Below, one piece after another: positions 10,821-43,370 of a stretch of DNA of 64,000 bases (the first letter of the stretch is position 1; every line of letters begins with the position of its first letter). The stretch spans positions 1,386 through 65,385 of the forward strand of contig JAZORU010000024.1 of NCBI GenBank assembly GCA_045656765.1. Direction: 5' to 3'. Source of the stretch: Eubacteriales bacterium. GTDB lineage: Bacteria > Bacillota > Clostridia > Oscillospirales > CAG-272. Under the pieces are notes generated by a model. The model searched no databases, was not told the origin of the DNA, and saw only the letters and a program-made list of their open reading frames with translations. A program made the position numbers and the translations under genes.

Positions 10821-11363
10821 CTAACAACAGCGGTTAATATATCCTTCGGTTGCATTTTCTCTACTTATTATCTTCGCAGGATTTCCGACAACTATCGAGT
10901 GATCGGGAACGTCAAAGTTTACAAAAGAATTTGGGGCTATCATAACGTCGCTTCCTATATTGATATTTCCTACAATTACTGCGTTTGCGCCTATCCACAC
11001 GTTGTCAGCTATCGTGGGGCTACCCTTACGCTTGCCTCTGTTTTCCTGCCCTATCGTAACGCCCGTTGCGATATTGATATTTTTTCCGAGTTTCGCGTTA
11101 TGGTTAATAATAATTCGTCCCGTATGACCGATAAAAAGACCGGGACCTATACTTGTATCAGGCGGTATTTGTATGTGCGTTTTCCTTGACATACTTATGT
11201 ATCGCATATTGTAATACTTCTTGGACAGAAAATTTTTCGAACATTGGCATTTCCTGAACACACACAAGAACTTAACGTCAAGAGGTCTTAACAGCTTTTG
11301 CTTAAGCGTTTCTTTTTGGGAACCGTAATATCTATACAGATCCTGCGAAAACAGCTGATTCAT
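10821..11363 (-). CDS. Left-handed beta-helix (hexapeptide) O-acetyltransferase, serine acetyltransferase/WcaB-like
   Basis: 180 aa. Hexapeptide repeats (IGPGLFIGHTGRIIINHNAKLGKNINIATGVTIG...IGANAVIVGNINIGSDVMIAPNSFV...VVGNPAKII). RBS GGAGG. Confidence 0.8.
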   Translation of the reverse strand: MNQLFSQDLYRYYGSQKETLKQKLLRPLDVKFLCVFRKCQCSKNFLSKKYYNMRYISMSRKTHIQIPPDTSIGPGLFIGHTGRIIINHNAKLGKNINIATGVTIGQENRGKRKGSPTIADNVWIGANAVIVGNINIGSDVMIAPNSFVNFDVPDHSIVVGNPAKIISRENATEGYINRCC

Positions 11364-11374
11364 GCTATTCCTCC

Positions 11375-11595
11375 AAAATAAAAAGAGCGTTAACCGAAGT
11401 TAACGCCCTGAAAAACGCAAACTCCGATTGTCGCTCAACAAATCAAATCAAATCAAAACGGGAATAGCTTCTGCATCCTAATTTGTGAAATTTGCGTTTT
11501 ATCCAAATTCAAAAATCAGGATGCGAAAAAAGGGTATAATTATCCCATAAAAAGAAACTACACCGTTTTTTTGTTTATTCGATTTGTTGAGCAAA
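11375..11595 (-). ncRNA. Candidate structured cis-regulatory leader RNA, copy B (upstream of the acetyltransferase)
   Basis: Plus-strand coordinates: P1 11581-11592/11433-11444 (12 bp); P2 11558-11569/11455-11467; P3 11513-11524/11473-11484; pseudoknot 11492-11500/11412-11420; terminator 11385-11408 plus U tract. Homologous to 42955-43165. Confidence 0.6.
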
Positions 11596-11598
11596 GAC

Positions 11599-11627
11599 AT
11601 TATAACACAATTTTGAAGAAAAAACAA
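11599..11627 (-). promoter_or_regulatory. Promoter driving leader copy B (TTGTTT-17-TGtTATAAT on minus strand)
   Basis: Plus attata 11599-11604 and aaacaa 11622-11627. The -10 region tgtgttataat is nearly identical to that of copy A (agtgttataat). Confidence 0.55.
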
Positions 11628-11677: not shown

Positions 11678-12221
11678 TGAACGCAAGCGTTCCGTCTCGC
11701 GCGTACCGGCGCGAGCCAAGACTCGACTTCGCCAAAACAAAAAGGACACCTGTTGGGTGGCAAAAGCTTTCTTTCGCAATTGCTTTTATAAATTGTCTAG
11801 GAACGCATGCGTTCCGTCGCACATCCGATTCATAGTCGCACTGCTCCCTCTCGGTCGCATTTCTCCTTGTTTTGTCACTCGCTTTTGCTCGCTTCATCCG
11901 CCCCCGGCGGCGCTCGCAACGCTCCCTCTCGCGCGTACCGGCGCGAGCCAAGGCTCGACTTCGCCAAATCAAAAAGGACACCTATTGGTGAAAACAATTT
12001 CATTTAAGCGTTTTTTTATAAATTGTCTAGGAACGCATAGCGTTCCGTCGCACATCCAAAACATAGTCGCACTGCTCCCTTTCGGTCGCATTTCTCCTTA
12101 TTTTGTCACTCGCTTTTGCTCGCTTCATCCGCCCCCGGCGGCGCTCGCAACGCTCCCTCTCGCGCGTGCCGGCGCGAGCCAAGGCTCGACTTCGCCAAAA
12201 CAAAAAGGACACCTATTGGTG
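11678..12221. repeat. Tandem GC-rich hairpin-dense repeat, period ~230 bp: two full units plus one internally deleted unit
   Basis: Units 12014-12221 and 11784-11990 differ by 7 substitutions and one 1-nt indel in my hand alignment. 11678-11757 is the same unit lacking ~115 internal nt. Each starts with the palindrome GGAACGCATGCGTTCC or a variant. Confidence 0.8.
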
Positions 12222-12229
12222 TCCTTTTT
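12202..12229 (-). terminator. Intrinsic terminator of tRNA-Ser
   Basis: aaaaaggacacc tatt ggtgtccttttt, 5 nt after the tRNA 3' end. The left half recurs in the tandem repeat units. Confidence 0.75.
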
Positions 12230-12233
12230 GTTT

Positions 12234-12325
12234 TGGCGGAGAAGGAGAGATTTGAACTCTCGCGCCGTTATACACGACCTACACCCTTAGCAGGGGCGCC
12301 TCTTCGGCCTCTTGAGTACTTCTCC
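12234..12325 (-). tRNA. tRNA-Ser (anticodon GCU), CCA encoded
   Basis: Reverse complement GGAGAAGTACTCAAGAGGCCGAAGAGGCGCCCCTGCTAAGGGTGTAGGTCGTGTATAACGGCGCGAGAGTTCAAATCTCTCCTTCTCCGCCA. Acceptor 7 bp, anticodon loop CTGCTAA, long variable arm, T-loop TTCAAAT. Confidence 0.9.
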
Positions 12326-42145: not shown

Positions 42146-42219
42146 GCGGATGTAGTTCAATGGTAGAATCCCAGCCTTCCAAGCTGGTCGTGCGGGTTCG
42201 ATTCCCGTCATCCGCTCCA
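42146..42219 (+). tRNA. tRNA-Gly (anticodon UCC), CCA encoded
   Basis: GCGGATGTAGTTCAATGGTAGAATCCCAGCCTTCCAAGCTGGTCGTGCGGGTTCGATTCCCGTCATCCGCTCCA. Acceptor GCGGATG/CATCCGC, anticodon loop CTTCCAA. Confidence 0.9.
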
Positions 42220-42227
42220 AAAACAAA

Positions 42228-42273
42228 GCCAAGTCGTAAGACTTGGCTTTGTTTTTGGAAATGAAGCACGCCC
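42228..42273 (+). repeat. Left copy of a perfect 46-bp direct repeat (contains the tRNA-Gly terminator hairpin)
   Basis: gccaagtcgtaagacttggctttgtttttggaaatgaagcacgccc, identical to 42829-42874. Confidence 0.9.
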
Positions 42274-42445
42274 TACGGCGTATGAAGCACCCTTCGGGCA
42301 TGAAGCAGGGCTTGCGCCCTATGAAGCGTGCCTTCGGCACACGAAAAAGCGTGCTTCGCTTCATGCGAGCGTATGCGAGTGCTTCGTGGCAACGCAGTTG
42401 CCGCTTCATGTTTGCGCATGCAAACGCTTCATTCAAAAAACAAAT
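42262..42445 (+). repeat. Array of ATGAAGCR words each attached to a short GC hairpin: 4 forward units, 3 inverted units
   Basis: Forward: ATGAAGCA-cgccctacggcg, ATGAAGCA-cccttcgggc, ATGAAGCA-gggcttgcgccc, ATGAAGCG-tgccttcggcac. Inverted: gcgtgctt-CGCTTCAT, ggcaacgcagttgc-CGCTTCAT, tttgcgcatgcaaa-CGCTTCAT. Confidence 0.8.
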
Positions 42446-42476
42446 TTTGAAAGACATACTAAAGGACGGTTTTATT

Positions 42477-42827
42477 ATGGTTAATGACAAGCTTTCTGAA
42501 CAATCTTTAGAGTTTGCTGTTCATATTATAAATCTCGTAAAACAGTTAAAAGAACAACGCGAAAGCATAATTTCTAACCAAATAGGCAGAAGCGGTACGA
42601 GTGTCGGTGCAAACATTCGCGAAGCAAAGTATGCTCACGGCACAGCTGATTTCGTTTCAAAATTGCAAATTTCACTTAAAGAAGCAAACGAAACAGGTTA
42701 TTGGCTCGAGCTACTCTATAAAACAAATTATATAAACGAGGAACAGTATAATTTTTTCGAATCAAAGTGCAAATCCTTAAGAGCTATGCTTGTATCTTCA
42801 ATCAATACAGCAAAGAAAAACACATAG
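42477..42827 (+). CDS. Four-helix-bundle protein (23S rRNA intervening-sequence protein / Avd family)
   Basis: MVNDKLSEQSLEFAVHIINLVKQLKEQRESIISNQIGRSGTSVGANIREAKYAHGTADFVSKLQISLKEANETGYWLELL matches the family signature (R-SxxSIxANIAEG, L-xA-GS--E---WL) as I recall it. ~116 aa is the usual size. Track start 42243 rejected. Confidence 0.8.
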   Translation: MVNDKLSEQSLEFAVHIINLVKQLKEQRESIISNQIGRSGTSVGANIREAKYAHGTADFVSKLQISLKEANETGYWLELLYKTNYINEEQYNFFESKCKSLRAMLVSSINTAKKNT

Positions 42828-42828
42828 T

Positions 42829-42874
42829 GCCAAGTCGTAAGACTTGGCTTTGTTTTTGGAAATGAAGCACGCCC
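42829..42874 (+). repeat. Right copy of the perfect 46-bp direct repeat
   Basis: Identical to 42228-42273, offset 601 bp. Begins 2 nt after the four-helix-bundle stop codon. Confidence 0.9.
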
Positions 42875-42919: not shown

Positions 42920-42948
42920 TTGATTTTTTAAAATACAAGTGTTATAAT
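42920..42948 (+). promoter_or_regulatory. Promoter driving leader copy A (TTGATT-17-TGtTATAAT)
   Basis: TTGATT 42920-42925, 17-nt spacer, extended -10 TGTTATAAT ending 42948. Confidence 0.6.
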
Positions 42949-42954
42949 AACCTT

Positions 42955-43165
42955 GCCAAACAATCTGAATATTTATTTCTATAGGTATATTCTTTTTTTA
43001 AGGGGATACTATACCCTTTTGCGCGCAATCTTACATACTGATTTTGGAAAAAATGCAGCTCCCGTAAGATTGTGTAGTATACCTATACTTCTAACAGATT
43101 GTTTGGCGACAATTGGAGTCTGCGTTTTTCAGTGCGTTGACTTCGGTTGGCGCACTTTTTATTTT
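42955..43165 (+). ncRNA. Candidate structured cis-regulatory leader RNA, copy A (upstream of the AbrB-like gene)
   Basis: P1 42955-42967/43095-43107 (13 bp); P2 42980-42989/43078-43087 (10 bp); P2a 43000-43004/43014-43018; P3 43026-43034/43064-43072 (9 bp); pseudoknot 43048-43058/43120-43129; terminator 43131-43156 + TTTTTATTTT. Confidence 0.6.
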
Positions 43166-43187
43166 ATGGATTTATATGGAGGTAGTT

Positions 43188-43370
43188 ATGGAAAGTAACG
43201 TAGGAATAATAAGAGAGGTAGACAAGCTCGGAAGAATAGTTATACCAAAAGAATTCAGAACGCTTTTCAAATTAGACAGCATTGTAGAGGTTATAGGCAC
43301 AGAATCCGGCATATTTATAAGAAATCCCGAATATAAGCTTGTCAAAATAGACAAGGACGAAAAAAACTGA
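43188..43370 (+). CDS. Minimal AbrB/SpoVT-type swapped-hairpin DNA-binding protein (60 aa)
   Basis: MESNVGIIREVDKLGRIVIPKEFRTLFKL...VEVIGTESGIFIRN parallels the AbrB N-domain (GIVRKVDELGRVVIPIELRRTLGI). GGAGG RBS 5 nt before ATG 43188. Track start 43113 lies inside the leader terminator. Confidence 0.75.
   Translation: MESNVGIIREVDKLGRIVIPKEFRTLFKLDSIVEVIGTESGIFIRNPEYKLVKIDKDEKN

Follow-up and report, generated by a model that had tools for sequence, protein, structure and literature searches.

Long-range loop–tail pairing overlaps a conserved anti-terminator in a leader RNA family of gut Clostridia

Two paralogous leader sequences, copy A on the forward strand and copy B on the reverse strand, are located in a stretch of 64,000 nucleotides (nt), hereafter the window, of contig JAZORU010000024.1 of a Eubacteriales bacterium (assembly GCA_045656765.1). 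In both leaders, the loop of a long hairpin designated P3 pairs with the tail of the leader, the segment preceding the intrinsic terminator. This loop–tail pairing, which had been put forward in an original prediction, is real and is conserved across a family of leader RNAs. The data show three helices under selection, namely the loop–tail pseudoknot, an anti-terminator and the terminator, each overlapping with the next. It is probable that each copy is an mRNA 5′ leader acting as a three-state transcription attenuator, and the RNA family is judged to be new, its kind of regulation being already known.

Loop–Tail Pairing in the Two Leaders

The two leaders are about 215 nt long and 77% identical, and a filter-free covariance-model search of the window detected no copies beyond A and B. 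Each copy possesses a promoter and an intrinsic terminator, followed by a ribosome-binding site (RBS) and a start codon 20–30 nt past the terminator. The predicted folds are very stable (z = −7.9 for A and −9.9 for B) and comprise, in this order, helix P1 of 15–16 base pairs (bp), a conserved AAUA bulge, helix P2 and a junction bearing the small P2a and the long P3 hairpins.

In copy A, the P3 loop AAAAAAUGCAG (43048–43058) forms 10 pairs with the tail CUGCGUUUUU (43120–43129), one of them being U43054–G43124; the pairing segment of the loop is AAAAAUGCAG (43049–43058). In copy B, the loop AAAACGCAA (11500–11492, minus strand) and the tail UUGCGUUUU (11420–11412) form nine Watson–Crick pairs. 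Both pairings agree with the original prediction, and so does the exchange at the outermost pair, G43058–C43120 in A and A11492–U11420 in B, which is a true compensatory change. The other exchange regarded as compensatory, U43054–G43124 in A and C11496–G11416 in B, was described correctly, but the change is one-sided. The helix is also longer than had been proposed, comprising 14 bp in each copy with the GGAG of the tail included. The extension in copy A pairs CUCC (43059–43062) with GGAG (43115–43118), leaving U43119 bulged, so that the complete strands are AAAAAUGCAGCUCC (43049–43062) in the loop and GGAGUCUGCGUUUUU (43115–43129) in the tail. The 14-bp helix of copy B joins the loop strand AAAACGCAAAUUUC (11500–11487) with the tail strand GGAGUUUGCGUUUU (11425–11412).

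The best RNAduplex pairing of the tail with the whole upstream leader was compared with that of 1000 dinucleotide shuffles per leader. The best duplex of copy A has an energy of −17.9 kcal/mol (shuffles −9.9 ± 2.0), and none of the 1000 shuffles was as good; for copy B the energy is −16.7 kcal/mol (shuffles −9.6 ± 1.9), and three of the 1000 shuffles were as good.

Covariation of the Pseudoknot in the Leader Family

At least about 125 homologs, making up a family of leaders about 215 nt long, were collected from genomes and gut metagenomes. A search of 185,579 species genomes, with a pattern constraining parts of the tail, yielded about 50 homologs in Oscillospiraceae, Acutalibacteraceae, Ruminococcus and other metagenome-assembled genomes (MAGs) of Eubacteriales and Clostridia from human, ruminant and bird guts. 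The metagenome search, with a pattern constraining only the two P1 strands, produced at least 120 loci and added at least 72 further unique elements. The structural alignment included 105 non-redundant homologs.

For 50 of the 53 homologs from genomes, no upstream segment pairs better with the tail than the P3 loop, which forms 13–16 bp with it. Across the 105 aligned homologs, the 15 pairs of the loop–tail helix are 97.5% paired, and nine of them have changed on both sides. When the pseudoknot and the terminator were tested jointly, none of 500 shuffles reached the observed values, and shifting the columns of the 3′ partner by 1–3 positions reduced pairing to 32–50%. There are 82 loop/tail combinations, in which 63 different loop strands and 37 different tail strands take part, and the duplex of a loop with its own tail is more stable than that with a non-cognate one (−17.0 vs. 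−14.6 kcal/mol; z = −12; 0 of 2000 permutations).

The compensation can be followed in individual members from the metagenomes, for which the search had left both strands free. Tail UUUGUG is accompanied by loop CACAAA, UUUACG by CGUAAA, UUAGCG by GUGCUA and GCAACG by CGU(A)UGC, and the same holds at the other end of the helix for tail GGGG with loop CCCC and tail AAAG with loop UUUU. Matched deletions of 1 nt in loop and tail are also found; the tail UUGCG, shorter by one U, faces the loop CGCAAUUCC, shorter by one A. A few uncompensated members carry C–A (homologs L016 and L051) or A–G (L075). G–U pairs are frequent, for example UG:76 at one pair, and their number indicates selection on the RNA of the leader strand. 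Thus, the claim that the pairing is maintained by compensatory change, made on the basis of two copies, holds far beyond them, as attested by the covariation, the 82 combinations and the cognate test.

It might be supposed that the complementarity is a relic of duplication, a chance match or the consequence of a DNA-level or trans effect, as the window copies are paralogs and their sequence is A/U-rich. This is highly improbable, however, since the native duplex energy was hardly ever reached by shuffled leaders, the pairing persists throughout the different loop/tail combinations and the own partner is better than the partners of other leaders; moreover, the abundant G–U pairs would be A–C mismatches on the opposite strand.

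The pairing consensus joins the 3′ half of the P3 loop, AAAA-N-YGC-...-UUCC, with the tail following P1, GGAG-...-GCR-UUUUU. Recognition of GGAG as a Shine–Dalgarno mimic or a protein site was considered and rejected, because the variants AAAG, GGAA, GGGA, GGGG and GAAG are compensated in both partners. The A4/U4–5 end of the helix never turns into G–C, and AU was found in 98–103 of 105 homologs at four pairs; this constancy might mean that the U-run acts in pausing or termination. Such behaviour of one end, while the rest of the helix covaries, is what would be expected if the loop–tail stem and UUUUU were themselves a long-range terminator or pause signal and the downstream hairpin a fail-safe second terminator. 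The stem GGAGUUUGCG/CGCAAAUUCC is indeed followed directly by UUUUU (43125–43129 in copy A). Nevertheless, the five U residues are succeeded by CAG and constitute a short tract, and a canonical terminator is located 3 nt downstream in every member, which makes this explanation quite unlikely.

The strand order S1-L1-S2-L2-S1′-L3-S2′ of an H-type pseudoknot was found in both copies, with P3 as S1 and the loop–tail helix as S2. S1 is a helix of 11–20 bp, the sequence of which is unrelated between members, and it is present in nearly all homologs. L1 measures 9–11 nt in 91 of 124 homologs, L2 0–2 nt in 108 and S2 13–15 bp in 120. These conserved lengths are compatible with a predicted geometry in which P3 and S2 are coaxially stacked. 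A weakly supported candidate for a fourth, competing helix, ‘P3b’, would join GAAUUU of L1 with AAAUUC of the loop; it is 79.6% paired vs. 76.6% in shuffles, and it gave z = −7.6 in the cognate test, yet the energy of the hairpin is only about −0.5 kcal/mol.

Anti-Terminator and Its Overlap with the Pseudoknot and the Terminator

An alternative pairing of the terminator, which could not be worked out in the original prediction, was found between the segment directly after P1 and the upper part of the terminator hairpin with its UUCG loop (consensus CAAUYGGAGUY × RRC-UUCG-GUUG). In the minimum free energy (MFE) fold of copy A, CAAUUGGAGUC (43110–43120) pairs with GACUUCGGUUG (43139–43149) and this helix replaces the terminator; the latter segment consists of the end of the terminator 5′ arm, the UUCG loop and the start of the 3′ arm. 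In copy B, the anti-terminator 5′ strand CAAUCGGAGUU (11430–11420) forms 10 pairs with 11401–11392.

In the alignment of 105 homologs, which was not fitted to the anti-terminator, its 11 pairs are 95.8% paired, and 8 of the 11 (33 cells) have changed on both sides. The observed values were reached by none of 500 shuffles, pairing fell to 13–60% when the 3′ partner columns were shifted by 1–3 positions, and the comparison of cognate with non-cognate duplex energies gave z = −11. The tail segment CAGU occurs with the terminator apex GGCUG, CUAU with GGUAG, GGAA with AUUUC, GGGA with UCUU, GGGG with CCCUGG or CCUCGG, and AAAG with CUUUAG. Several of the covarying positions lie in the terminator loop and have no partner in the terminator, so this covariation is specific to the anti-terminator.

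The terminator stem itself is 98.9% paired over 10 pairs in the 105 homologs, and nine of these pairs have changed on both sides. Both window copies carry an 11-bp stem, a UUCG loop and a U-tract, characteristic of intrinsic (Rho-independent) terminators, in A at 43131–43165 (stem 43131–43156) and in B at 11376–11409 of the minus strand (stem 11409–11384). The family thus has a conserved alternative helix, the anti-terminator, that is mutually exclusive with the terminator. For the isolated expression platform, the energies average −16.5 kcal/mol for the anti-terminator and −15.3 kcal/mol for the terminator, and the stability of the former equals or exceeds that of the latter in 74 of 105 homologs.

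The three helices are interlocked. GGAGUY (43115–43120 in copy A) is common to the pseudoknot and the anti-terminator, and 43139–43149 is common to the anti-terminator and the terminator. In homolog L171, GGAG is replaced by AAAG, UUCC of the loop by UUUU and CUUCGG of the apex by CUUUAG; in L218, GGGG is found with the loop CCCC and the apex CCCUGG. Such triple compensation indicates that the same nucleotides serve both helices, and it is the strongest sign of this obtained in the present study. The suggestion of a pseudoknot linking the upstream fold with termination is therefore supported, although the 10 bp originally listed do not overlap any alternative helix. The route of coupling is the extension of 4–6 bp, GGAGUY, which was absent from the earlier description and is shared with the covarying anti-terminator.

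Proposed Switch

According to the proposed mechanism, a strong sigma-A-type promoter would start the transcript, and the long rod of P1, the AAUA bulge and P2 would form, ending in the P2a/P3 junction. The P3 loop and the tail would then form the H-type pseudoknot of 13–15 bp. By holding GGAGUY, the pseudoknot would block the anti-terminator, the terminator would fold and transcription would stop about 25 nt before the RBS. If the pseudoknot were prevented, the anti-terminator would form and the polymerase would read into the gene. Judging by the platform energies, read-through is expected when the tail is free, and termination when it is sequestered in the pseudoknot; since the pseudoknot excludes the anti-terminator, it would function as an anti-anti-terminator. 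The effector might be a protein or a small-molecule ligand of the P1-P2-P2a-P3 fold, or else a change in how the polymerase pauses. We infer in this way the OFF/ON logic of the switch, together with the effector and the direction of regulation, and the upstream fold would be a candidate ‘sensor’.

It seems that the ON state must be kinetic or effector-dependent, because, by rough estimate, the combination of pseudoknot and terminator is favoured over the anti-terminator state by about 17 kcal/mol. The same difference led to the rejection of a switch in which the ON and OFF states are nearly equal in energy. A helix of such length needs no ligand to form, so it is more likely that an effector blocking the pseudoknot, or pausing, sets the outcome. 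The 5′ strand of the anti-terminator directly continues the 3′ strand of P1, and the anti-terminator could accordingly stack on P1 near the 5′ end of the transcript.

As for pausing, the sequence TTGTTT in the P1 3′ strand of copy A (43099–43104) and of most homologs matches the motif TTNTTT, which is located at −11 to −6 of NusG-dependent pauses (PMC11602163). Taken as a lead only, this match suggests that the polymerase would pause once P1 is complete, immediately ahead of tail synthesis. A pause motif could also explain why P1 is conserved in sequence beyond its pairing. In homolog L036, only the N position of the motif differs (TTCTTT), and the change is uncompensated in P1.

Several points weigh against the attenuator model. 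The covariance model was built with the loop–tail helix nested, so the alignment was fitted to the pseudoknot, and the pair counts given above refer to sequences rather than to independent events. The rough energies imply that the leader would be always OFF at equilibrium. The distal 9–10 bp of the pseudoknot are clear of the anti-terminator, and a partial pseudoknot could coexist with it. The outcome, termination or read-through, is deduced from overlaps and nearest-neighbour energies. Among the 107 downstream proteins analysed with Pfam, no association with one pathway or with transport was found that would point to a metabolite. Finally, read-through is not the sole conceivable route of expression in copy A, given a promoter-like match inside its terminator (43137–43165).

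Some of the same observations would fit a different role, in which the terminated RNA of about 205 nt is the main product, a stable small RNA, with the pseudoknot serving folding or stability and the expression of the downstream gene being incidental. The promoter and the terminator are both strong, the short transcript should dominate given the energy difference, the downstream genes are unrelated to each other, and the sequence of P1 is conserved as though recognised by a factor. Still, the compensatory evolution of the anti-terminator makes sense only if read-through is selected, and, as the RBS lies 10–30 nt past the terminator, most members have no space in which a separate promoter could fit. 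Since loop and tail are unlike between copies of one genome, the leaders also share no common trans-target. On balance, a small-RNA function appears unlikely.

Relation to Known Regulatory RNAs

The logic of the proposed attenuator is, by analogy, that of the anti-anti-terminator attenuators exemplified by the S-box and pyr leaders, and among switches with pseudoknots the closest counterpart appears to be preQ1-I. The S-box/SAM-I and PyrR-controlled pyr leaders of Bacillus likewise arrange an anti-anti-terminator, an anti-terminator and a terminator serially in 5′ leaders of Firmicutes. However, the anti-anti-terminator of those leaders is a helix formed locally, as P1 or the PyrR binding loop, and S-adenosylmethionine (SAM) or PyrR stabilises it, whereas in the leader family it would be a long-range pseudoknot; besides, their anti-terminator pairs with the 5′ arm only, while that of the leader family spans the apical loop and the tops of both arms of the terminator. 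In the preQ1-I riboswitch of the Bacillus subtilis queC type, the 3′ strand of an H-type pseudoknot is also taken from the anti-terminator, and the pseudoknot leads to the terminator and the OFF state. It is about 34 nt long with a ligand-needing second stem of 4 bp, in contrast to about 215 nt and a self-stable second stem of 13–15 bp here, and no sequence or structural similarity to the leader family was found by Rfam matching. The lack of a model match places the leader family outside the S-box, pyr and preQ1-I families.

The ZTP (pfl) and fluoride (crcB) riboswitches resemble the leader family in having a long-range pseudoknot, the 3′ strand of which lies just upstream of or within the intrinsic terminator and couples the fold to termination. 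Their pseudoknot of 5–6 bp competes with the terminator, and the ligand turns the gene ON, whereas the pseudoknot of 13–15 bp described here would compete with the anti-terminator. T-box leaders are similar as multi-copy, long leaders of Firmicutes with competing anti-terminator and terminator and switching segments conserved in sequence. The leader family differs from them by having neither a specifier loop nor a T-box bulge, by its continuous 11-bp anti-terminator and by downstream genes unrelated to aminoacyl-tRNA, and copies A and B did not match the T-box model of Rfam even at E ≤ 10.

A classical small-molecule riboswitch, with an aptamer formed by P1-P2-P2a-P3 and a ligand that stabilises the pseudoknot and turns the genes OFF, as in the preQ1-I and SAM-II types, should be considered here. 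Unpaired nucleotides are conserved at the AAUA bulge, the junction UAUACCCUUUU and L1 GAAUUUGGU, several copies occur per genome region, and the logic of the expression platform is riboswitch-like. Ligand-dependent pseudoknots of the preQ1, SAM-II, fluoride and ZTP classes, however, are short and marginally stable, as opposed to 13–15 bp and about −17 kcal/mol in the leader family. Given in addition the lack of metabolic coherence among the downstream proteins and the existence of short variants wholly missing P2a, this interpretation is doubtful.

With the 4227 covariance models of Rfam 15, only a tRNA was found in the whole window at gathering thresholds. At E ≤ 10, copy A gave no matches, and copy B gave noise far under the gathering scores, the best being RNA-OUT (22 bits vs. 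41); no Rfam 15 family was matched by any of the approximately 125 homologs. A description of the motif was also absent from the searchable literature, including the first 200 of the 408 supplementary files of a survey of structured RNAs of the human microbiome. A scan of viral contigs with the tail motif returned 15 matches, all of them due to chance.

Distribution, Variants and Downstream Genes

The elements of the family occur several times per genome region, and two copies per locus were found in L095, L066, L047 and L191. Most of the 107 downstream proteins have no Pfam family; the commonest families are SHOCT (6), BspA-type leucine-rich repeat (LRR; 5) and zinc ribbon (5), and about 30 of the proteins have lipobox-like N-termini. 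The downstream genes are thus a mixture encoding lipoproteins, small membrane proteins, zinc-ribbon, SHOCT and LRR surface proteins, and an AbrB-like protein.

The leader at L030:5714–5939, from an uncultured Ruminococcus sp. MAG, is nearly identical to 42951–43174 of the window, with the same P1, P2 and tail. It precedes a lipoprotein-like gene and not an AbrB-like one, which suggests that the unit of promoter, leader and terminator moves between genes as a cassette.

The short variants L026, L088, L096, L060 and L044 are devoid of P2a, yet P1, P3, the pseudoknot, the anti-terminator and the terminator are kept. The element L085:3062–3227 lacks P3 and hence has no partner for the pseudoknot, but retains the tail and the terminator, and in L082:1215–1443 the loop is degenerate. 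The short forms, L085 and L082 could be informative as natural ‘mutants’. In L191:223–527, a single P1–P3 rod is bordered on both sides by inverted modules of tail plus terminator, each followed by an RBS and an open reading frame (ORF) on its own strand; the P3 loop of the minus strand reads like a tail and is unable to form the pseudoknot. Either the locus is organised bidirectionally, or the 1.35-kb contig is a chimera produced by assembly.

Abundant gut Clostridia of humans, ruminants and birds, belonging to Oscillospiraceae, Acutalibacteraceae and related lineages, widely carry the family, where it precedes poorly characterised surface and membrane proteins, and it is absent from Rfam. 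The model of the pseudoknot, the anti-terminator and the terminator is complete at the level of base pairs, with compensatory support for each helix, and its logic is testable with a few mutants. The identity of the effector would reveal a signal coordinating envelope-related genes in genetically difficult organisms. The design, with a very long pseudoknot proposed as an anti-anti-terminator and an anti-terminator engulfing the terminator apex, is unusual and may be useful for ideas about co-transcriptional folding. A broader and tentative possibility is that the family is an orphan RNA class that, in the dominant Oscillospirales of the gut, rules a large regulon of surface proteins, lipoproteins and small membrane proteins; an effector conveying a global signal would block the long anti-anti-terminator pseudoknot, and the stem with U5 may also terminate. 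If this were the case, the global signal could be a second messenger or a dedicated RNA-binding protein, or could lie in polymerase pausing.

Features of Copies A and B

The promoter of copy A (42920–42948, plus strand) consists of the −35 box TTGATT, a 17-nt spacer and the extended −10 box TGTTATAAT (10 of 12 matches, with TG), and this block is kept in copy B and in the homologs. According to the MFE fold, the P1 5′ strand UUGCCAAACAAUCUG (42953–42967) pairs with CAGAUUGUUUGGCGA (43095–43109), which includes TTGTTT, and the P2 5′ strand UAUAGGUAUA (42980–42989) with 43078–43087. P1 covaries in 49 homologs, one pair being, for example, CG:41/UA:6/GC:2. An integron attC-like site, suggested by the P1 strands GCCAAAC...GTTTGGC, was rejected, in view of the selection on RNA pairs including G–U and the presence of a promoter and a terminator. 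The P2a hairpin (43000–43019, MFE fold) includes the conserved junction sequence, with positions T60, T62 and T68 conserved in at least 90%. The P3 5′ strand (43023–43034), which is the pseudoknot S1, pairs with 43064–43075, and L1 of the pseudoknot occupies 43035–43048.

A gene encoding a 60-aa AbrB/SpoVT-like protein is located downstream of copy A (43188–43370, plus strand), with the RBS GGAGG at 43178–43182; the protein matches MraZ (2.1e-05) and MazE_antitoxin (5e-04) of Pfam. A leader peptide was rejected, as there is no conserved RBS with a start codon within the leader; an ORF of 81 aa at 42953–43198 has a TTG start and lacks an RBS. The promoter-like match inside the copy A terminator is weak and sigma-70-like (TTGACT, 17-nt spacer, TATTTT; 9 of 12), and it could drive some terminator-independent expression of the AbrB-like gene.

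The promoter of copy B (11599–11627, minus strand) was read from the sequence and has the same extended −10 box and a weak −35 box, TTGTTT. Its block GTGTTATAAT is kept in copy A; a consensus promoter scan did not call it. The P1 strands of copy B are UUGCUCAACAAAUC (11581–11594), compensated relative to copy A, and GAUUUGUUGAGCGA (11431–11444), and the P2 helix is unlike that of copy A in sequence. The downstream gene (10821–11363, minus strand) encodes a 180-aa hexapeptide-repeat acetyltransferase-like protein; Pfam Hexapep is matched by one member of the downstream protein set.

Repeats Adjacent to the Two Copies

A perfect direct repeat of 46 nt is present at 42228–42273 and 42829–42874, between a tRNA gene immediately before it (42146–42216) and the copy A promoter shortly after it. 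Each repeat contains a hairpin resembling a terminator (GCCAAGTCGTAAGACTTGGC) with a T-run behind it, and together they flank a 600-bp segment with an ORF (42243–42827), the end of which presumably resembles four-helix-bundle proteins. The arrangement looks like an insertion that duplicated the terminator of the tRNA. Directly upstream of the copy B promoter, the region 11688–12221 comprises three tandem units of about 231 bp that are 93–96% identical and carry G+C-rich palindromes, with a 24-nt inverted repeat beside them at 12190–12241.

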